Shown here in pieces: positions 2,767 through 53,907 of a stretch of 54,782 bases of DNA. The notes beneath the pieces are model-generated. The model was not told the origin of the DNA, did not search any database, and worked only from the letters and a program-made list of their open reading frames with translations. Source of the DNA: an archaeon (GTDB taxonomy: Archaea; Nanobdellota; Nanobdellia; Parvarchaeales; Parvarchaeaceae). The position numbers and the translations under genes are program-made. The DNA lies in the NCBI GenBank assembly GCA_037443005.1, contig JBBIPE010000003.1, positions 1 to 54,782 on the forward strand, written 5' to 3'. Each line of letters starts with the position of its first letter. Position 1 is the first letter of the stretch.

Positions 2767-4380
2767 TTATAGAGGAATGACGTAATTCTCGCCATTTTCT
2801 TCAGTCTCCATATATCCCTCAGTATCAAGCTTCAATCTGATCTGTACAGGCTTCAGGTTGTATTTAGATGAAATATATTGTATGAATTTATTAGGTGTCT
2901 CATTAAAAGCGCTGTTACCTAATATTATCTCTTTGCACCCATATTCTTTAGCTCTATAACGGATATCCTCATATACCTTGTCGAAAATCTTTTTATCTCT
3001 GAAATCACGGCTTCCCTCTACTGAATCAACAAGAAACTTGTTCCCTTCCTTATAGCATATTGCACTGCCGGCAGCCTTTCCATCCAGATCATATCTGACA
3101 AGTATTACATTGGAATCATTGCAGTACTCGACGATACCTCCATCCACTGGCCCAGGGAAATAAACGCATGCCATCTGAACATTACGGTTGTAATCAAGCG
3201 GGTTCTTGCTTTCTACTGCGGACATTTTATGGGAATTATATGGAAGAATGTTCCCTCCTGCATCAAACATGTTCATCACTTTGCCGATGTATCCGTCTTT
3301 TACGTCTTTAAGGGTGGATACTGCAGTGTCATAATCTCCGTCTTTCATTGCCTTTATCAATTTAGGGATAACATCTCTGTGTTTGGTATAAAGCGCGTTT
3401 TTAGCACTATTTACAGCCTTTTCCCCGACAATGGAAGATACTACTGAGAAAGCTTCCTTGTACTTGATCTCATCCCTAGAGCCAAGTACGGATATCACCG
3501 CATATCCTTTCATTTCCTCGCTTGACAATTCAACGTTTTTGCTCCCAATAATATCTTCCAGTTTATTCCTGGTAGTATTTTCCAGTTTATACTCCTTTCG
3601 CCGCTCTTCCCTAGCATTATTCACGAGTTCTATTATTTCTTTTATATAATACGTATCATGCTTATCAAGTACCGCAAGCATCATCATCTGATCAAGGTTA
3701 AGCACCTTATGTACCCCATATCCTTCCATAAATCTATTTCTGGCAGTATCAATGTAACTTTTCATAGTGTCTTTAGTAGGCTTTGGCAGACCTAGTTTAT
3801 CACCAAAATTCAGATACAGCGAAACAGCATACAATCCGTCCATATCTGTTATCACTTCATCCAGACCCTCATTTATCACCGAAATCATCTTCGAATAATC
3901 TAAAATCATGGTGGCCGCTCTGCCTACTCTGTTTATCAGATTTGCACCCCTAAGTGTTTTATATTTGTCTCTGGTTTTATAAGCTATCCACCCAAGCTGA
4001 TTTGCTATCTCTGCTGCAGCATTATCAGAATACTTCCCAACAGTCTTAACTATCTCATTAAGACTTAGGATTTTACTTACATCTAAGACAGACTTTTTGT
4101 TTTTGGTTTGATCAACTATCTCCCTAAGCCAAAGTGCTATATCTGCTGCAGCATCACCATTATACCTTCCTATTGTTCTAGCACATTCAATAACTGTCTC
4201 TTGGTCTTGGATTTTATTAAATATCAACCCGAGATAATTAGCTATATCCTTAGAGGTAGGTACCTTATACTTAATTAATATCTCAACAACTTTCTTTTTG
4301 GCTTTAGGATCAAGAGAATTAAGCTGATTAAAAGTAGAATCAGTCGTTATTTTTCTAAGAATTTCATCAAGTTTTTCCAT
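2767..4380 (-). CDS. hypothetical 537-aa protein with N-terminal helical (HEAT-like) repeats and a possible acetyltransferase-like C-terminal domain
   Basis: A motif recurs three times: DIANYLGLIF, AADIALWLREIV, AAEIANQLGWIAY. The C-terminal region VDSVEGSRDFRDKKIFDKVYEDIRYRAKEYGCKEIILG resembles the beta4-alpha3 region of GNAT proteins but lacks a clean RxxGxG. Confidence 0.5.
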   Translation of the reverse strand: MEKLDEILRKITTDSTFNQLNSLDPKAKKKVVEILIKYKVPTSKDIANYLGLIFNKIQDQETVIECARTIGRYNGDAAADIALWLREIVDQTKNKKSVLDVSKILSLNEIVKTVGKYSDNAAAEIANQLGWIAYKTRDKYKTLRGANLINRVGRAATMILDYSKMISVINEGLDEVITDMDGLYAVSLYLNFGDKLGLPKPTKDTMKSYIDTARNRFMEGYGVHKVLNLDQMMMLAVLDKHDTYYIKEIIELVNNAREERRKEYKLENTTRNKLEDIIGSKNVELSSEEMKGYAVISVLGSRDEIKYKEAFSVVSSIVGEKAVNSAKNALYTKHRDVIPKLIKAMKDGDYDTAVSTLKDVKDGYIGKVMNMFDAGGNILPYNSHKMSAVESKNPLDYNRNVQMACVYFPGPVDGGIVEYCNDSNVILVRYDLDGKAAGSAICYKEGNKFLVDSVEGSRDFRDKKIFDKVYEDIRYRAKEYGCKEIILGNSAFNETPNKFIQYISSKYNLKPVQIRLKLDTEGYMETEENGENYVIPL

Positions 4381-4967
4381 ATTTTATGCTTAAATTATTA
4401 TGATAGAAAAGAACTAGTATATAAACTTTTCTTTACTATAGAATCATAAATAATACAATATTATGGGATTATCCAATTATAGAGAAGATGTAAGTTAGGA
4501 AGCGAATCGAAAACTCTTTAATGTTCTCTTTGGCAGCAAACAATTAATGAAGCAGAATGTTTACCAATAAATACTGAATTATTTTACTAGATATGGAAAC
4601 TACCAAAAAAGGATTTTAGGAGTTTTTTAAGTCTGACTTAGTATTTTCGGAGTAATCGCTCTGATTTATTTTTATCGAGAACGTTTCAAAATCATTTTTA
4701 GTAGCATCGACTATATTCTTGTTCAGAATTTCACTAATAGCTATCAGATAGCAAACGTATTTGTGTATTTGATCTTATGAATGGTTATTCATTTAAAGAG
4801 TTTTAAGGAAATTAAGTATATCCTTTACATGGCAGGATCTGCTTCCTTAAGTTTTATTAAGCCGTTCTTTGTCAGATTCCCATACTTATACAATTCATTT
4901 TCCACAGTTTTTTGTTCACCCTCCTAAGTCATATAGACGTTTAAGAAGAGCATTACCGAATGTGACA

Positions 4968-5041
4968 TGCCCTCGCCAGGATTTGAACCTGGGTGCCCGG
5001 TTTAGGAAACCGGTATTCTGTCCAAGCTAAACTACGAGAGC
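4968..5041 (-). tRNA. tRNA-Arg (anticodon CCT)
   Basis: The reverse complement folds as a cloverleaf: acceptor GCTCTCG/CGAGGGC, anticodon arm CCGGT-TTCCTAA-ACCGG, T arm CCAGG-TTCAAAT-CCTGG. Confidence 0.9.
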
Positions 5042-22952: not shown

Positions 22953-23025
22953 GCTCTCGTAGTCTAGCGGCCAAGGACAGTGGCCTCTCGAGTCACTGAC
23001 CCGGGTTCAAATCCCGGCGGGAGCA
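22953..23025 (+). tRNA. tRNA-Glu (anticodon CTC)
   Basis: Acceptor GCTCTCG/CGGGAGC, anticodon arm GTGGC-CTCTCGA-GTCAC, T arm CCGGG-TTCAAAT-CCCGG. Confidence 0.9.
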
Positions 23026-23033
23026 TTTTAAAT

Positions 23034-23258
23034 TTTGGTATATAATGTCTCTTTCTTAAACGGACTCTTATCCCCAAAACCCCAAAGTAAAGCCCAATCC
23101 ATACCTAAATCATAGCCTAAACCTGCAGAGGTAATCTGGGAGTCATTTGGGAGTAGAGTGGGAGTAAAGTGGGATTCATTGGGGGTAAAACTCACTAATT
23201 AGGCAGCTGGGAAAAAGGGAAAAACTCGGGAAATCGGGATCGGCTTAAAAGTTTAAAG
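23034..23258 (+). repeat. copy B of the ~210-bp conserved non-coding module, starting ~8 nt after tRNA-Glu
   Basis: It has the same ordered blocks as copies A and C. GGGAGT-type units start at 23138, 23149, 23160, 23171 and 23181. Confidence 0.75.
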
Positions 23259-23277
23259 AATATTTAAATAAAAAAAT

Positions 23278-23964
23278 ATGAGTTTAGTTATGGAAAGCGA
23301 AAAGCAAAAATATCGCCAGATGTTAGGTTTCTTTTCTGAGTGGATAACCACAAGATATTTCTTGTACAACAGGAACTTTGTTGTATCCTTTAATCATCAC
23401 TATATAAAACGTTGGGATGGTGCAGAAAAATTTAGAAAAACGCTAAAAAACTTACTGAATTTAATCAGAAAATCTGAACTTTTTCATGAATATTACCAAG
23501 ATATAATTGAAAAAAACGATGAATTTGAAGCATTTGATTTATTTGCACAATTAAATGTAATAGAGTTTCTAAGGGTTGAAAATAAGAACATCATAATAAG
23601 CGAAATAAAGAGCAAATATTACTTTGACAAAACCAGTTATTACGTACAACCTACAAAAATTCAAATTAAAAAACTGATAGAACTGTCCAAAATCGGCATC
23701 GATACTTCAATTATTTTGGTTATAATGATGGAAAAACCTAAATTCTTAGAGATACCTTTTACAAAATTTAGAATCCCATTAAACTTAGAAGAAAAAGCTG
23801 ATGATAAAATAAAATTAAGGATACCACCCGAGTATAGAAGACTGTCATTATTTAAGGAAATCGAACCTGAGGTTTATTATCCTTTCAATTGGTCGTCATT
23901 AGAGGAACTTATAGGACAAATTATTAAATTTAAAAATCCTGATTTTAATAAAGGGATATCGTAA
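23278..23964 (+). CDS. hypothetical protein with Hjc-like PD-(D/E)xK nuclease core
   Basis: FDLFAQ...IIISEIKSK...QIKKLIELSKIGIDTSIILVIM follows the D...E-x-K plus helix plus beta layout of archaeal Holliday-junction resolvases. Confidence 0.4.
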   Translation: MSLVMESEKQKYRQMLGFFSEWITTRYFLYNRNFVVSFNHHYIKRWDGAEKFRKTLKNLLNLIRKSELFHEYYQDIIEKNDEFEAFDLFAQLNVIEFLRVENKNIIISEIKSKYYFDKTSYYVQPTKIQIKKLIELSKIGIDTSIILVIMMEKPKFLEIPFTKFRIPLNLEEKADDKIKLRIPPEYRRLSLFKEIEPEVYYPFNWSSLEELIGQIIKFKNPDFNKGIS

Positions 23965-24130
23965 ATAGATTGAGATTTAAGAGGCGAAGGATCCGAAAAT
24001 AATGCATTTGATAAGAAACTACCAATATCCAATATGGGCGTAATGAGTGTACACCTAAGAACTAGATAGAGAAAAACTCAAGCGGACTACTTCTATTTCA
24101 TATTAAAGAGCTTTCAATGGTTTATGAATA

Positions 24131-24400
24131 TTGCTGCAATTAAAATACCTATTTTTAACTTTTTATATGGATCTCTCGCCAGATCTAACCATTAAAAGTG
24201 ATGAATACTACGACGCGCTGAAAAAGATGTCGGAATATGGCGTAATAAAAGCCAATAATTACAGGACTATGGTGCCTTTTAGCAAGTTCTGTGTTTACTG
24301 CGCTGACAAGCTGAGAAACATAAAATACTTGCCAATGAAGGATCTAAACCATGACGTTATCCTGCGTTTCAGCAACGTAGATGTCATGAAAAACCGCTAA
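24131..24400 (+). CDS. hypothetical protein
   Basis: An ORF only, with no motif recognised. The true start may be the internal MDLSPDL Met. Confidence 0.3.
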   Translation: MLQLKYLFLTFYMDLSPDLTIKSDEYYDALKKMSEYGVIKANNYRTMVPFSKFCVYCADKLRNIKYLPMKDLNHDVILRFSNVDVMKNR

Positions 24401-24504
24401 AAAGATAGACCCTGAACTGGCGTTTGCAAAACAAAAAAAGGATTATATGACCAGGTTAATATAGACTGTATAAATTCGCCAATAGACAAAAAACTAGAGG
24501 TAGA

Positions 24505-24650
24505 ATGAGAAAGAAAGCTACAAAGACATAACTTTACCGAATGAGACATGGAGAAAACTGACCCAATTTAAGCTTGACAAAGGCAAGAAGAGTATGGAGT
24601 AGGTAATCGAAGAAACCCTTTCGATTTACAATGCCACTAGAAAGACTTAA
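24505..24650 (+). pseudogene. decayed ribbon-helix-helix (VapB/DUF217-like) antitoxin gene
   Basis: MRKKATK is followed by a frameshift, then DITLPNETWRKLTQFKLDKGKKSME, an in-frame TAG, and VIEETLSIYNATRKT*. Confidence 0.35.
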
Positions 24651-25059
24651 AATAGAGCTCCAAATACTGTAAAGGCATTGTCGATTGCTGACGAAAGCTG
24701 GATCTCAGAGAAGGAAAAGGAATCTGAGGGTATACTTAAAGGGTGGAATTAACTATATCCATAAACTTCGGCTCGCTGTGTGCTTTCGCCCTAAGATTCA
24801 AGATTATTCTCTAGCTTTGTCTGAAAGTTTTAGCACATTCTGGATCATTTCTGATGACAACAGGTATGTCTTTTATATCCGACTCTATAATCTAATATGT
24901 TATTTTTAAGGATAGGTATATCACGGATGGTATCATAGGTTTAGGAAAATAATAAGAAAGCGGCCTGGCCCAGGTACCATTACCGAAAGCAAGGATAACG
25001 CCTCTATTTATTTTATCTAACATGGAATAATATTAATGTAAACTTGTTTAAATTTGATT

Positions 25060-35117: not shown

Positions 35118-35239
35118 GTCCCTGCGGCCGGATTCGAACCCGCAACCTACCGGTTTCTACAGCTGAAACTCTTCATCGCACTGACAAACAGCACTTGGTA
35201 ATTCTACAGCCGGTCGCTCTACCATTGGGCTACGCAGGG
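35118..35239 (-). tRNA. tRNA-Tyr (anticodon GTA) with a 49-nt intron at the canonical 37/38 position
   Basis: Acceptor CCCTGCG/CGCAGGG has the C1:G72 archaeal Tyr identity pair. The anticodon stem ACCGG/CCGGT is interrupted after CTGTAG. Gene length of 122 nt minus 73 nt mature tRNA gives the intron size. Confidence 0.85.
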
Positions 35240-49793: not shown

Positions 49794-49865
49794 AGCCCCT
49801 TAGTCTAGCGGCAAGGACGACAGGCTCTGGACCTGTAAACACCGGTTCAAATCCGATAGGGGCTA
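49794..49865 (+). tRNA. tRNA-Gln (anticodon CTG)
   Basis: Acceptor AGCCCCT/AGGGGCT has A1:U72 (the archaeal Gln feature). The anticodon arm is ACAGG-CTCTGGA-CCTGT. The T stem shows one C-A mismatch as I fold it. Confidence 0.85.
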
Positions 49866-49872
49866 CTTCTTA

Positions 49873-50088
49873 TTTGGGGTATATGATATCTCATTATTAA
49901 AAGGACTCTTATCCCCAAAACCCCAAAGGAAAGCCCAATCCCTGTCTAAGCTATGGCCTAAGCATGCGGGAGTAATGTGGGAGTCATTTGGGAGTAGAGT
50001 GGGATTCGTTGGGAGTAAAACTCACTAATTGGGGAGTCTGGGAAAAGGGGGAAAATTCGGGATATCAGGATTGCTTTAAAAGTTTAAA
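49873..50088 (+). repeat. copy C of the ~210-bp conserved non-coding module, starting ~8 nt after tRNA-Gln
   Basis: It has the same ordered blocks as copies A and B. GGGAGT-type units start at 49968, 49979, 49990, 50001 and 50011. Confidence 0.75.
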
Positions 50089-50213
50089 AAAAATATTATA
50101 TAATAGATAATATATGGTTAAAAATGATGATAAAGAAAGCAAAAAGGAAAAGCCGATCTTATCTAAACAGAATTTTAAAAATATAATATGATACAAATAT
50201 AGTACACAAACAT

Positions 50214-50699
50214 ATGGAAAATATCAAAATAGTACGGCCCAAAAGAACCGATGCAAAGGACATATTTAGGCTGCAGAAAGAGTTCGATGCGTATTTACAA
50301 AGCCTTACAAAGAAGAAACGCAAAGACCACGCTTTGAAACGCGAAAAGGCTTTCATGCGCTATGGTTTTGGCAAGAACCGGTTGTTCTATACATTGATAG
50401 CCAAAAAGAATAGAGTGGCCGTAGGTTATATCTGTTACCATCTCGGATATGATCCCGATGAAATGCAGGGGCCGGTAATCCATGTAATTGATATATTTGT
50501 TAGCTCGTCTGCGCGTGGACATGGTATAGGCAAATCGCTTATGAAAGCGGTTGCTGAAGTCTGTAAAAGAAAGGGCGGTTTTGCACTTTATTTTGCCGTG
50601 TGGAATAAGAATAAATCGGCAATAAAATTCTATAAGAAACTCGGTGCTGACTGGGAGAGAGAAGTGCCGTTCATGCATTGGTTTTTAGACGGCAGATGA
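50214..50699 (+). CDS. GNAT-family N-acetyltransferase
   Basis: Motif A is IFVSSSARGHGIGKSLM. Confidence 0.8.
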   Translation: MENIKIVRPKRTDAKDIFRLQKEFDAYLQSLTKKKRKDHALKREKAFMRYGFGKNRLFYTLIAKKNRVAVGYICYHLGYDPDEMQGPVIHVIDIFVSSSARGHGIGKSLMKAVAEVCKRKGGFALYFAVWNKNKSAIKFYKKLGADWEREVPFMHWFLDGR

Positions 50700-50869
50700 G
50701 AAGTTATTGGGCAGGTATTATAAATTACAATTTATTCTGCCCTATAATTTCCAAAGTCATGAAAAGAAACATGAAAGAAGACATTTTAGGAAAGTAAATT
50801 ATAACTAATAACAATTTAGTTGCGTGGCGGTAGCTAAAAAACTAGGAAGAAAAACATGAACTTATTTGC

Positions 50870-51184
50870 TTGTTATTAACATCTTTGGTTGTAGTGCTAA
50901 TTTTTTGTTTTGCTCTGCTACTGATGATTAATTACAGGGTAAATTTCCTCTTTGCTGTGCCAATTTGGATTGTCTTATCACTATTTTATATTGTAACAAT
51001 AAAAAGATATTTAGAAAGAGAGGCCGATATCATCGCTGCCCGTAAAGTTGGCAAGGATGTTTTTAAGAAGTCATTACAAAAATTATCGAAAATTGGTATG
51101 CCCAATGACTGTTTGTTCCATGGTACTTTCTCTTTTAGAATTAAAAGAATAGAAAAAATTAACCTATCAAAAATTAGTCGTTAA
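50870..51184 (+). pseudogene. M48/HtpX-like peptidase remnant lacking HExxH
   Basis: The tail READIIAARKVGKDVFKKSLQKL resembles the third-ligand / C-terminal helix of M48 peptidases. No HExxH is present. The ORF starts at TTG, and an upstream ATG (50856) is out of frame and stops after 7 codons. Confidence 0.35.
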
Positions 51185-53907
51185 TTATCTTTTAAACTAT
51201 CCTCAATTATTTTCTTTTCTTCTTCTGTTATTCCGTAAATTTTGTATACAAGACTATCAATTATGTTTCCTATGCCCATTATCTCGTTCTCTAATTTTGC
51301 GTTGGTATCGGTTCTCTTATCAAGGGACTTATTAAGTTGCTTCTGTAATAATAATCTTTTATCGACAAGTTCTACAATTTCTTTTTGCTCGTTCTTTGAG
51401 ATTATCTTTATTGGTAGAGCTCGTATATTATTAGGATAAACATGCAATCCCGAGCCAATAAAAGTTTTGAAATAAAATTTCATAAGTTTTGAGTTAAAAA
51501 TCGCTAGTATGTAACGTATGTCGTATCTTTTAGACTCAGTTATTTGCTCTTTAGTTAACGTTAGCCCCCTCCTTTTTATTCCAAAGAGCTCAAAAAATGG
51601 TAAGCATATTGACAAAGTATGTTCGACATAATAATTTTCAGTATCTAATGTAGCTTTTATACCTCCCTTTGCGTTTACATCTCTAATGATTATTTTTGGA
51701 TTTTCAAAAAGCTCTTTAAACATTGGGTTATATAATTTTTTTATATCATACAACAGGTATTTTCCATCATAGTTTATTGTGTATCTATCAATATCTCTAC
51801 CATCTAACATCGGTTTACAAAGATCATTTATTTTTTGTTTTAAAACAAAATTTTTAATATCCCCACTTCTAGCCCCCCAATTTACATAACATATATCTTT
51901 TACTAAAACTGAATTTGTTTCAATTTTTTGTTTTAGCTTCATTTTTGTTGGGTTTATATCAATTCTAAATAGAGTTTGTTTATCATCAGAATACATAGAT
52001 TGTTTTATCTCTAATATATTTTCCTCAATTATATTTTTGTTTTTTGGGTCTTCTGTTGGTCTTACAATCTTGATTTTATTTTTATCTCTTTTTACCTTAT
52101 CTTTATTTTTTCTAAGAACTATAATTATATTATCAACTGTTGCATCTGCGAATATTTTATAGTTAGTTAAGTCAACAATTTTAATTATACAACAATTTTC
52201 GGTGATATATTTTCTTATCATTTCACCGTATGGCTGTAATAAAAATTTATCGGGCACTATAAAACTAAAGTATCCACCTTCTCTTAAAAGTTTTGTTGCT
52301 CTTTCTATGAATAATACATACAAATCGAATTTCTTATGAGCACTGAAATAGATTTTTTGGTAGTAGTCTATTTCTTTTTTATTTTTAGACAGCAGATAAA
52401 TGTTGACATAAGGCGGATTCCCGATTACAATATAAAATCCACCTTCCTTGATTATTCCTGGGAATTGTTCTTCCCATTTGAAAGCTTTATCACCTACAAT
52501 TTTCGGGTCGTCTATCAAAGAGTTCCCAACTTTCAAGTTATCCCTTAGAACTGGTAATAATTCTCCCTTTGATAGAGAATTACTTTTCGATAGAGTTAAT
52601 ACAGTTAGATAGATATTGAGTTCAGCGATTTTTATGGCCTTCCCATCCAAATCTACACCAAAAACATTATTCTTTATTACTTCCAATTTTTGTTTTGGAG
52701 AAAAATTCTCATAGTCTTCGTAATTTTCGGTATAATATTCATCTAAAACTCTAACTGCTGCAATTAGAAACGAACCCGAACCACATGCCGGATCTAATAT
52801 TTTTAGTTTTTTAACTTCATTAAGTTTTGCAGTTTTAAGCTTTTCTCCTAAAGTATTTTCTATTATGTAATCTACGATATACTTAGGAGTATAGTAAATA
52901 CCCTGAGCTTTCCTTTGTGCGTTTCCTCCCGATAGTTTTATGCCTTTTTGGATATAAGATAGGTAGTTCTCATACATGCTTCCGAGTATATCCTGGTCTA
53001 TAGCAGCAAAGTTGTAGGATAGTTTACTATTAACTGGGTGAGATATTGTAGACAATACATCATTAATTACATCATCGCTTATTTCTAAATTTTCTACCTC
53101 AGATTTCTCTTCTGGCTTCCCAAATATGTCACTGTCATATTCTTCTCTGTAGTACTCAAATATCTTCTTAAGATTATAATAAACATTTGACTTATCACGT
53201 CTTATCAAAGGCTCAAGCTGTTTTTCCTCAAGAAGTTCAGCTTCTATCTTCTTTATGAATATTAGCCTGTTTATTATACCTTGGGTAAGTTCTTCATATT
53301 CATCATTAGAGTATTTAGTTTTATACTCTCTTTTTAGATAGTTATTAAGTTTCTCTCTAATTAAATTAATACTTAAAGTAAGCTCACTAGATATGTCTAT
53401 CTGCCCGGTCTTTATGCCTCTTCTTTTGGCCTCTTCTTCTATCCCTCCGTTTAATATATTGTCATTTCTAAACCACTTTAGCTGGCTTTCGATGTTATCT
53501 AAGCTGTAAGAAGTAAGCTCAATATCACAGAAAGGGGATATCTTGCCGTCGCTTCCTATATACCAGGCTTTGAACCATCTGAAATTGGTTAAAATTGCTA
53601 TGTTTACAGCCTTATTGTAAGCGTACTCCAGTACTTGATCATCATAATTGGAAGTGGATAAATCGACCCCTAATTTCTTTGCCTCTACAATAACCTTTGG
53701 TACCCTAAGGTACCAGTAGTCCGGTCTCTTAATGCTCTCTTTAGTCTCTACGGAAGCTTCCCTCCTTATGTTATCTTCATCCCAGCCTAGGACTTCTGTC
53801 AATAAAGGATCTATAAGCTTAGCTTTTGTATCATTTTCACTTAAAGTTTTATCTGATAAGAGCCTTTTACATTTCTCTATAAGCTCCTTCAGTCTTTCTA
53901 TTTGCAT
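51181..53907 (-). CDS. type IIG restriction-modification enzyme (fused PD-(D/E)xK nuclease, N6-adenine methyltransferase and target-recognition domain)
   Basis: The N-terminal HSDR_N-like nuclease reads AKLIDPLLTEVLGW...RPDYWY...VIVEAKK. Methyltransferase motif I is LDPACGSGSFL and motif IV is GNPPYV. A C-terminal TRD follows. Confidence 0.85.
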   Translation of the reverse strand: MQIERLKELIEKCKRLLSDKTLSENDTKAKLIDPLLTEVLGWDEDNIRREASVETKESIKRPDYWYLRVPKVIVEAKKLGVDLSTSNYDDQVLEYAYNKAVNIAILTNFRWFKAWYIGSDGKISPFCDIELTSYSLDNIESQLKWFRNDNILNGGIEEEAKRRGIKTGQIDISSELTLSINLIREKLNNYLKREYKTKYSNDEYEELTQGIINRLIFIKKIEAELLEEKQLEPLIRRDKSNVYYNLKKIFEYYREEYDSDIFGKPEEKSEVENLEISDDVINDVLSTISHPVNSKLSYNFAAIDQDILGSMYENYLSYIQKGIKLSGGNAQRKAQGIYYTPKYIVDYIIENTLGEKLKTAKLNEVKKLKILDPACGSGSFLIAAVRVLDEYYTENYEDYENFSPKQKLEVIKNNVFGVDLDGKAIKIAELNIYLTVLTLSKSNSLSKGELLPVLRDNLKVGNSLIDDPKIVGDKAFKWEEQFPGIIKEGGFYIVIGNPPYVNIYLLSKNKKEIDYYQKIYFSAHKKFDLYVLFIERATKLLREGGYFSFIVPDKFLLQPYGEMIRKYITENCCIIKIVDLTNYKIFADATVDNIIIVLRKNKDKVKRDKNKIKIVRPTEDPKNKNIIEENILEIKQSMYSDDKQTLFRIDINPTKMKLKQKIETNSVLVKDICYVNWGARSGDIKNFVLKQKINDLCKPMLDGRDIDRYTINYDGKYLLYDIKKLYNPMFKELFENPKIIIRDVNAKGGIKATLDTENYYVEHTLSICLPFFELFGIKRRGLTLTKEQITESKRYDIRYILAIFNSKLMKFYFKTFIGSGLHVYPNNIRALPIKIISKNEQKEIVELVDKRLLLQKQLNKSLDKRTDTNAKLENEIMGIGNIIDSLVYKIYGITEEEKKIIEDSLKDN

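Follow-up and report, generated by a model that had tools for sequence, protein, structure and literature searches.

A repeated module beside tRNA genes of a Parvarchaeota-like archaeon as a probable end of small casposon-like elements

A 54.8-kb stretch (54,782 nt) of archaeal chromosome, contig JBBIPE010000003.1 of assembly GCA_037443005.1 and hereafter called the window, carries three copies of a non-coding module of ~215 nt, two of them next to the 3′ ends of transfer RNA (tRNA) genes. Comparison with relatives leads us to consider it probable (roughly 60%) that this module is the long asymmetric terminal region of small casposon-like cargo elements in Parvarchaeota-like archaea of the DPANN group; since these elements encode no casposase, they would be non-autonomous and moved in trans. 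Casposons are the transposons from which CRISPR spacer capture is believed to derive, and they are central to ideas on the origin of CRISPR adaptation. They are rare, and work on them has been mostly in vitro, with a single in vivo study, made in Methanosarcina mazei. In the mechanism that we propose, an intact element would have terminal inverted repeats of ~31 nt, the ~215-250-bp module at one terminus and one to few unrelated accessory genes. Insertion would take place 10 nt past the 3′ end of a tRNA gene and in either direction, with duplication of 14 bp (the last 4 nt of the tRNA and 10 nt of its trailer), and the enzyme responsible would read the T-loop sequence TCAAATC and cut 8 bp and 22 bp downstream of it, a rule demonstrated in experiments with the family-2 casposase of Aciduliprofundum boonei.

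The architecture behind this reading comes from a relative in which both ends are preserved (L016/L017, the same locus in two samples). An nhmmer profile of the module matches its sequence at 2516-2762 over nearly the full length (E 5e-9), within a discrete 2,194-bp element that carries two genes and lies 3′ of tRNA-Glu. This element is bounded by the perfect 14-bp direct repeat ATCATTAAAATGCT, at 2504-2517 and 4711-4724, which consists of the last 4 nt of tRNA-Glu and the next 10 nt. Along the plus strand, host DNA is followed by ATCATTAAAATGCT, by GGAGTACAATATATTTCCTTCTTAATTTCA with the remainder of the module homologue, by genes for a 263-aa protein and a 253-aa DUF483 protein, and then by TGAAATTAAGAAGGAGATATACTATACTCC, the second ATCATTAAAATGCT and tRNA-Glu in reverse complement. 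The terminal inverted repeats of ~31 nt are identical at 27 of 31 positions, with 36 matches over a 42-nt alignment, and have the consensus GGRGTATAnnATATCTCnTTCTTAA. When the element and one copy of the repeat are subtracted, 75 nt separate tRNA-Glu from the ATG of a GalT/HIT-like gene, exactly the distance seen in the element-free relative L006. The module stands behind one end only, the other end being the terminal repeat alone; it therefore makes up the interior portion of one of the two ends of a transposon-like element. Taken by itself, it has no inverted repeats at its own two ends.

The window copies, all on the plus strand, correspond to this long end. The Glu copy (23036-23250) adjoins tRNA-Glu with its 5′ terminus, where the terminal repeat (T)GGTATATAATGTCTCTTTCTTAAACGG (23036-23066, +) shares homology with the L016 inverted terminal repeats and aligns to the terminal repeat of the A. 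boonei casposon. The Gln copy (49876-50088) adjoins tRNA-Gln with the terminus GGGGTATATGATATCTCATTATTAA, and copy c (2415-2626), the most diverged, has no tRNA upstream; its terminus faces outward, inverted relative to tRNA-Arg. Pairwise identity is 83.5% between the Glu and Gln copies, 75% between Glu and c and 78% between Gln and c. The module profile gives exactly three matches in the window (E 1e-76 to 1e-84; the next match has E>1), and the module is its sole substantial repeat family. A preliminary description of this DNA had recognised these three full copies, listed the blocks that they share, all of which we find in them, and held their conservation to be non-coding. We agree: a coding module was rejected because indels of 11 nt and 1 nt disrupt every frame, including the register of the minus-strand open reading frames (ORFs) of 52-57 codons present in each copy, and because substitutions show no codon-position bias (8/9/10). 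That description missed, however, a fourth, partial copy. Directly after tRNA-Arg, the short-end remnant GGTAATGCTCTTCTTAAACG (4930-4957, minus strand, read from 4957 to 4930) matches the 5′ terminus of the module over ~25 nt, with a local alignment score of 30 against 13.7 ± 2.3 for shuffled sequences, none of which (0/300) exceeded it. No similarity to the terminus was found after tRNA-Ala, tRNA-Ser, the intron-containing tRNA, or the 5S, signal recognition particle (SRP) and RNase P RNA genes, and possible terminal remnants after tRNA-Glu in the relatives L005 and L019 were not significant.

The junctions follow a common rule: the T-loop motif TCAAATC is followed by 8 nt, by a 14-nt segment and by the element terminus, which thus starts 22 nt after the motif (22-23 nt in the Glu copy). 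The targets in the window are tRNA-Glu(CUC) (22953-23025, +; TCAAATC at 23007-23013), which is identical in relatives, tRNA-Gln(CUG) (49794-49865, +; TCAAATC at 49847-49853) and tRNA-Arg(CCU) (4968-5041, -; TCAAATC at 4986-4980). Four junctions, involving three tRNA species and two genomes, obey the rule. It is exact at tRNA-Glu of L016 (TCAAATC, CCGGCGGG, AGCATTTTAATGAT, GGAG...), at tRNA-Gln of the window (TCAAATC, CGATAGGG, GCTACTTCTTATTT at 49862-49875, GGGG...) and at tRNA-Arg (TCAAATC, CTGGCGAG, GGCATGTCACATTC at 4971-4958, GGTA...), and it holds within 1 nt at tRNA-Glu of the window (TCAAATC, CCGGCGGG, AGCATTTTAAATT(T), (T)GGTA...). At this last site the 14-nt segment AGCATTTTAAATTT (23022-23035, +), made of the last 4 nt of tRNA-Glu and 10 nt of trailer, occupies by homology with AGCATTTTAATGAT the place of the L016 target duplication. 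By homology, the module begins 10 nt after the tRNA (10-11 nt for Glu) instead of the ~8 nt after the discriminator base estimated earlier. Among the window tRNAs, three of the four with TCAAATC carry an element end, as against neither of the two with TCGAATC. The 14-mers are unrelated from one tRNA to another and the element ends are homologous right up to the junction, so that the duplicated segment must be target DNA and not an attachment (att) core borne by the element. Orientation varies as well: at tRNA-Glu, the long end adjoins the tRNA in the window and the short end does so in L016. At tRNA-Arg the layout is that of L016, with the short end at the tRNA, then a cargo gene for a 537-aa protein (ORF537), then the long end (copy c) inverted 2.3 kb away. 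The long end at tRNA-Glu and tRNA-Gln of the window and the short end at tRNA-Arg and in L016 imply that both orientations occur.

The same junctions bear on a rival reading, which develops the arm or att region of tRNA-targeting integrative elements raised in the preliminary description: the elements would be moved by a tyrosine or SSV-type integrase that recombines at the tRNA 3′ end, with the 14-bp repeat as att core and the inverted repeats as core-type integrase binding sites. The 3′ ends of tRNA genes are the classic location of such elements, whose islands also resemble those described here in their low-GC accessory or defence cargo and in a flanking direct repeat, which in our case does include tRNA nucleotides. 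Moreover, the tandem 11-bp units of the module are presumably reminiscent of arm-type sites, and an integrase gene could have been lost with the DNA deleted from the Glu island, or could lie in that part of the Gln island which the contig does not reach. Nevertheless, the intact 2.2-kb L016 element and the entire window lack an integrase gene, the repeat covers only 4 tRNA nt, the unrelated 14-mers at tRNA-Glu, tRNA-Gln and tRNA-Arg combined with homologous termini indicate a target-derived repeat, and the two orientations at one tRNA contrast with the fixed orientation expected from an integrase. Repeats of tRNA fragments, or partial tRNA copies, are also absent elsewhere in the window, so that the earlier suggestion to look for a repeated tRNA 3′ segment accompanied by an integrase gave a negative answer, and the long inverted repeats of the L016 element form, with its 14-bp target duplication, a transposon signature of casposon type, unlike the ends of integrase islands. 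We therefore regard an integrase as an unlikely agent. The broader idea of a tRNA-targeting element survives, in the form of a terminal region of mobile elements that settle in tRNA 3′ flanks, bring in low-GC accessory genes and, at tRNA-Glu, replace conserved genes.

Casposons provide a much closer parallel. Integration of the A. boonei casposon produces a 14-15-bp duplication that overlaps the 3′ end of tRNA-Pro by 5 bp (PMC5137440), and its family-2 casposase depends on a TCAAATC motif placed 8 bp before the segment that is duplicated (PMC6614799). In other euryarchaeal casposons the overlap with the tRNA gene amounts to 4-7 3′-terminal nucleotides, and the terminal repeats measure 25 to 602 nt (PMC4046053); the casposons of M. 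mazei occur at tRNA-Leu in both orientations with 14-bp duplications (PMC4779613). Like the family-2 casposons AciBoo-C1 and those of M. mazei, the elements studied here insert immediately 3′ of a tRNA gene and leave the tRNA intact; their duplication of 14 bp (14-15 bp in casposons) overlaps the last 4 tRNA nucleotides (4-7 in casposons) and begins 8 bp after the T-loop TCAAATC, as in A. boonei, and they start 10 nt past the tRNA end, as the A. boonei casposon does (15-5 = 10 nt). They share with casposons terminal inverted repeats in the same size range (~31-42 nt against 25-602 nt) and a cargo of restriction-modification, methyltransferase and acetyltransferase genes, and with the M. mazei casposons the occurrence of both orientations at one tRNA. 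Resemblance extends to the termini, which have the GGRG, TA-rich run and CC(Y)TCTTAA of the AciBoo-C1 repeat. When the A. boonei terminal oligonucleotide GGGGATATATATACATCCCCTCTTAA (supplement of PMC6614799) was aligned, anchored at the terminus, to six ends, four of them reached p <= 0.002 and the summed score was exceeded by none of 3000 shuffles.

By contrast, the elements lack the Cas1 casposase, PolB, HNH and helix-turn-helix (HTH) core genes of casposons. The intact one measures 2.2 kb versus 8-20 kb, the host belongs to the DPANN, and the extra module of ~215-250 bp at one end, with its phased 11-bp units, palindromic block and inward promoter, is undescribed for casposons. Two of the features by which casposons are recognised, terminal inverted repeats and a 14-15-bp duplication, are found in L016, the former also in the tRNA-Arg island of the window as a short-end remnant and an inverted long end, and the family-2 target rule (an overlap of 4-7 tRNA nucleotides, 8 bp after TCAAATC) is followed; Cas1 and PolB, however, are not encoded, and the elements are for this reason not classifiable as casposons. 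On the simplest reading, a casposase encoded elsewhere would move them in trans; its gene could, for example, belong to the stretch of the Gln island that continues past the end of the contig. The match to the A. boonei border dinucleotide and terminal TCCCC motif is only partial. The terminal repeats end 3′ in ACCCC (Gln), ACTCC (L016) and ACGCC (copy c), compared with TCCCC in A. boonei, where C at -3/-4 is important, and the duplicated segments start with AG, GC and GG in place of the A. boonei CC border, although such motifs may be enzyme-specific.

Several observations weigh against a casposon-like origin. No cas1, polB or recombinase gene was detected in the window, in the L016 element or beside the module homologue of a third genome (L020, described below); the Cas1 and PolB scans, with Pfam, NCBIfam and PHROGs, were run on every ORF of the islands, on the cargo of L016 and on most of the ORFs in the window. 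Both ends and the duplication are intact in one element only, that of L016/L017. A second copy of the junction 14-mer was sought at all three window islands and none was found; the outer junction of copy c shows neither the target motif nor a duplicated 14-mer, and both this junction and the L020 module are at sites without TCAAATC. Conversely, tRNA-Ala has TCAAATC and no insertion. The border CC is not conserved, the essential C at -3 of the terminal repeat is found in the Gln copy only, and the significance of the terminal-repeat alignment is overstated because the null consisted of mononucleotide shuffles, which destroy the (TA)n run. Finally, exact-pattern scans of public collections did not recover the module, which limits the sample to four genomes of one clade. 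A short terminal repeat was likewise sought without success at the far ends of the Glu and Gln islands of the window. To judge from their sequence, the window copies are relics that have lost their far ends or duplications.

The scans just mentioned found nothing in representative genomes or viral contigs, and only chance matches in Joint Genome Institute (JGI) metagenomes and in one further viral scan. Blastn of the module against plasmid and phage records gave no match, the translated minus-strand pseudo-ORFs, searched against a protein database with the aim of finding copies miscalled as genes, had 0 matches, and a pelota-based search of representative genomes confirmed no locus. A diverged module was found in L020 (690-982, minus strand; NCBI GCA_013285365.1, JABEBX010017819.1). 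Its terminus is conserved at 24-25 of 31 positions, its terminal motif GGTATAGTA is repeated twice internally, and it has a promoter that precedes a gene for a 223-aa orphan protein. A TauE gene separates it from tRNA-Glu, which is ~1 kb away, and the site is no TCAAATC target; this position could reflect tandem or older insertions.

Classical transposable elements without a transposase offer a further comparison. Derivatives resembling miniature inverted-repeat transposable elements (MITEs), as well as Tn7 and Mu ends, are similar in combining terminal inverted repeats and a target duplication with the lack of an own transposase, and in having subterminal repeats at one end, and Tn7 also inserts site-specifically downstream of a conserved gene. 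The elements described here differ in carrying genes, so that they are not miniature, in a duplication of 14 bp and not 2-9 bp, in the lack of similarity to known insertion sequence (IS) ends and in the lack of Tn7-like genes. A MITE in the strict sense (under about 0.8 kb, non-coding) was rejected on the basis of the 2,194-bp length, the two genes and the 14-bp duplication of the intact element. The outcome that the preliminary description had named as refuting, a module that is just the end of a transposable element, is indeed what we observe, although the element is no catalogued IS or MITE.

The interior of the module is more complex than a simple terminal repeat. Counting both strands, the window contains 17 occurrences of the hexamer GGGAGT. 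Ten of them are inside modules, where it forms the core of phased 11-bp units with five variable nucleotides. There are five or six units per copy: six in the Glu copy (23127-23192, +), and the Gln copy is short by exactly one unit. The most conserved internal block, GTAAAACTCACTAATTAGG (23185-23203, +), is a part-palindrome and a putative operator-like protein-binding site; at the corresponding position L020 has a palindrome that is perfect over 24 bp, AAAAATCACTAATTAGTGATTTTT. In an alignment of five copies from three genomes, four features are conserved: the terminal repeat, the block AAAA(C/A)TCA(C/G)TAATT, a purine-rich stretch and, at the inner edge, the promoter-like AAAGTTTAAA; the GGGAGT array is clear only in the lineage of the window. 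On account of these conserved features we propose that the module is a protein-binding platform. The phased GGGAGT units and the palindromic block TCACTAATTAGTGA would be protein-binding sites for assembly of a transposition complex or for regulation, the two ends would differ in function owing to the subterminal repeats and to an operator that binds a dimer, and the promoter at the inner edge would express the cargo.

To score promoters, 39 upstream regions of this genome served to build a matrix, whose consensus is about AAAGCTTTAAATA and ends ~24 nt before start codons. This strong B recognition element (BRE)/TATA consensus recurs throughout the window at about -35 to -37 in front of most start codons and RNA genes, a fixed distance that indicates mostly leaderless transcripts in this organism. 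Promoter-like BRE/TATA elements are present at the inner edge of the Glu copy (23247-23270, +), directed into the cargo (scores 6.8 and 8.5 at 23247 and 23258, facing the downstream genes), and at the 3′ edge of the Gln copy, where AAAAGTTTAAAAA (50078-50090, +) scores 10.7 and also faces downstream genes. A 24-codon ORF (MVKNDDKESKKEKPILSKQNFKNII; 50115-50189, +) begins exactly 37 nt after AAAAGTTTAAAAA, upstream of an acetyltransferase gene, and could be a leaderless micro-ORF or a mere 5′ leader. In copy c the promoter is decayed and no gene follows on its own strand. Outside the module, a distance of 36 nt separates the outer terminus of copy c from the promoter-like GAAACTATAAATA further upstream (2389-2401, +; score 8.9), which belongs to no annotated gene.

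These features can also be read in terms of a non-coding RNA (ncRNA) of ~170-200 nt, with its own promoter or released by RNase Z as a tRNA trailer, which could itself be carried by an element. Two copies are indeed on the same strand as the upstream tRNA, copy c has the promoter-like GAAACTATAAATA upstream and a folding z-score of -2.0, and a structure predicted with RNAalifold contains 4 two-sided pair changes versus 1.3 expected from shuffles, a count that is weak because the structure was derived from the same three sequences. However, folding z-scores against dinucleotide shuffles are +0.3, -1.1 and -2.0 on the plus strand (mean about -0.9) and about 0 on the minus strand, and the consensus fold reaches -23 kcal/mol against a mean of -53 for single sequences (0.43), with an unfavourable covariation term. 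In addition, the module can do without a whole 11-nt unit, an oligo-T terminator is lacking, the 5′ 'TATA' box on which the preliminary description had based a promoter scores <5 in all copies with the genome matrix, Rfam 15 yields nothing at the gathering score and nothing on the module at E<=10, and in L016 and at tRNA-Arg the module is distant from the tRNA and inverted to it. With its promoter, its folding and its Rfam match all failing, the ncRNA proposed there appears quite improbable.

An iteron-type replication origin of a plasmid or virus integrating at tRNA genes, the remaining proposal of that description, would accord with the five or six phased 11-bp direct repeats, the central palindrome TAAGCTATAGCTTA and a switch in strand composition between the module halves. 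Beyond the 11-bp repeats we find nothing specific to an origin: genes for a Rep protein, a primase or a helicase do not accompany it, its L016 and L020 homologues retain the repeats only poorly, plasmid and phage records hold no match, and an origin is unnecessary for an element of 2.2 kb that has inverted terminal repeats and duplicates 14 bp, all of which makes this function very improbable. Scarcely credible is a host regulatory region (promoter plus operator sites) duplicated before several genes and unrelated to mobility, since, despite the conserved palindromic block upstream of a 3′-edge promoter-like element spaced correctly for leaderless starts, copy c has a decayed promoter and no downstream gene on the same strand, module starts keep a fixed distance from tRNAs, and the L016 module is bounded by an inverted repeat and a target duplication.

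Returning to casposon-like elements, a more specific scenario, which we advance tentatively and at somewhat less than even odds, is that they are the first natural non-autonomous casposons: small DPANN cargo shuttles that borrow a family-2-type casposase, which would use the T-loop TCAAATC as 'leader' and duplicate 14 bp. The module would then be an asymmetric end of a kind not described before, serving to recruit the machinery or to control it and, in addition, to express the cargo. The searchable literature contains no description of non-autonomous casposons and none of casposons in DPANN, which is not proof of novelty. If this scenario were true, casposase-type integration would operate in ultra-small symbiotic DPANN archaea, and a casposase would be able to move foreign genes in trans, which here include those for a restriction-modification enzyme and an acetyltransferase. 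The ends of an element could then be strongly asymmetric, and cas1-less elements would parasitise the casposon integration machinery, in a manner resembling the proposed path from casposons to CRISPR arrays. The elements would also supply a natural pair of substrate and target for biochemical tests, and their insertion would explain the hypervariable 3′ flank of tRNA-Glu in these reduced genomes.

That flank was compared through the pelota neighbourhood of several relatives, in which tRNA-Glu and its promoter are conserved. In L006-L010 nothing extra follows the tRNA and the GalT/HIT-like gene begins 75 nt on; L018 has a phosphoribosyltransferase gene, L019 a 371-aa orphan, L020 TauE and the module homologue, L005 another gene and L016/L017 the 2.2-kb insert. 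The content of this slot thus differs in every lineage compared (L005, L006-L010, L016-L020), with both flanks syntenic, and the tRNA-Glu 3′ flank is an insertion hot spot in this clade. GC content is 28-31% in the islands, 37-38% in the core and 38-44% in the modules. The low-GC islands and the variable slot together indicate that the module marks imported DNA at such a hot spot.

The window has lost the GalT/HIT-like gene and, except for its first 68 codons, the neighbouring nucleoside triphosphate (NTP)-transferase gene; the module, an orphan cargo gene and ~860 bp of junk DNA take their place. The cargo gene, ORF228 (23278-23964, + strand, possibly starting at 23290; GC 28%), had been taken for an Hjc-like nuclease, a similarity that we could not detect; the type IIG restriction-modification gene and the 537-aa orphan, also named earlier, are confirmed. 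ORF228 is followed by the decayed, non-coding remainder of the insert (23965-24822), which lacks the distal end of the element, and by the NTP-transferase remnant (24823-25023, -; residues 1-68, tblastn identity 53%, E 3e-14), a gene intact in relatives. This remnant marks a deletion that removed the far end of the Glu element, the GalT/HIT-like gene and most of the NTP-transferase gene. The Gln element carries a cargo of 31% GC (50214-53907) composed of a GNAT acetyltransferase gene (50214-50699, +), which is an accessory gene, a 104-aa ORF and a type IIG restriction-modification gene (Eco57I/MmeI-like; 51181-53907, -), which is a defence gene; its far end lies beyond the contig. ORF537 (2767-4380, -), an orphan cargo gene, is located between the short end and copy c. 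The cargo genes of different elements show no relationship. For ORF228 and ORF537 we found neither homologues nor Pfam, PHROGs or PDB matches, and the AlphaFold model of ORF228 was unusable (predicted local distance difference test, pLDDT, of 37). The N-terminal part of ORF537 gives weak hints of HEAT/ARM repeats (E about 0.09). As family-2 casposons have a core HTH-HEAT protein (PMC4779613), this hint is a lead, not a finding.

The remainder of the window, which has an overall GC content of 36.6%, encodes core functions, including ribosomal proteins, MCM, topoisomerase VI, phosphoenolpyruvate (PEP) synthase, pelota and GlnRS/GluRS, together with RNase P RNA, SRP RNA, 5S rRNA and six tRNA genes. 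An intron-containing tRNA (35119-35239, -) was missed by ARAGORN and recognised by Rfam with 48.6 bits; its T-loop reads TCGAATC and no element follows it. The nearest pelota homologues (63-72% identity) come from metagenomes of acid-mine-drainage type, and some are labelled 'Candidatus Parvarchaeota archaeon'; on these sequence grounds the host is a Parvarchaeota-like DPANN archaeon. Exact-protein look-ups recovered the organism, outside the assembly of the window, only in Logan assemblies of SRR11582165. Three Logan contigs of that run (L003, L014 and L004) end inside the module, at window positions 23082, 23053-24211 and 50021, at 31-mers common to the copies, and L004 differs from the window at 5 positions, pointing to a second, slightly different strain or sample.

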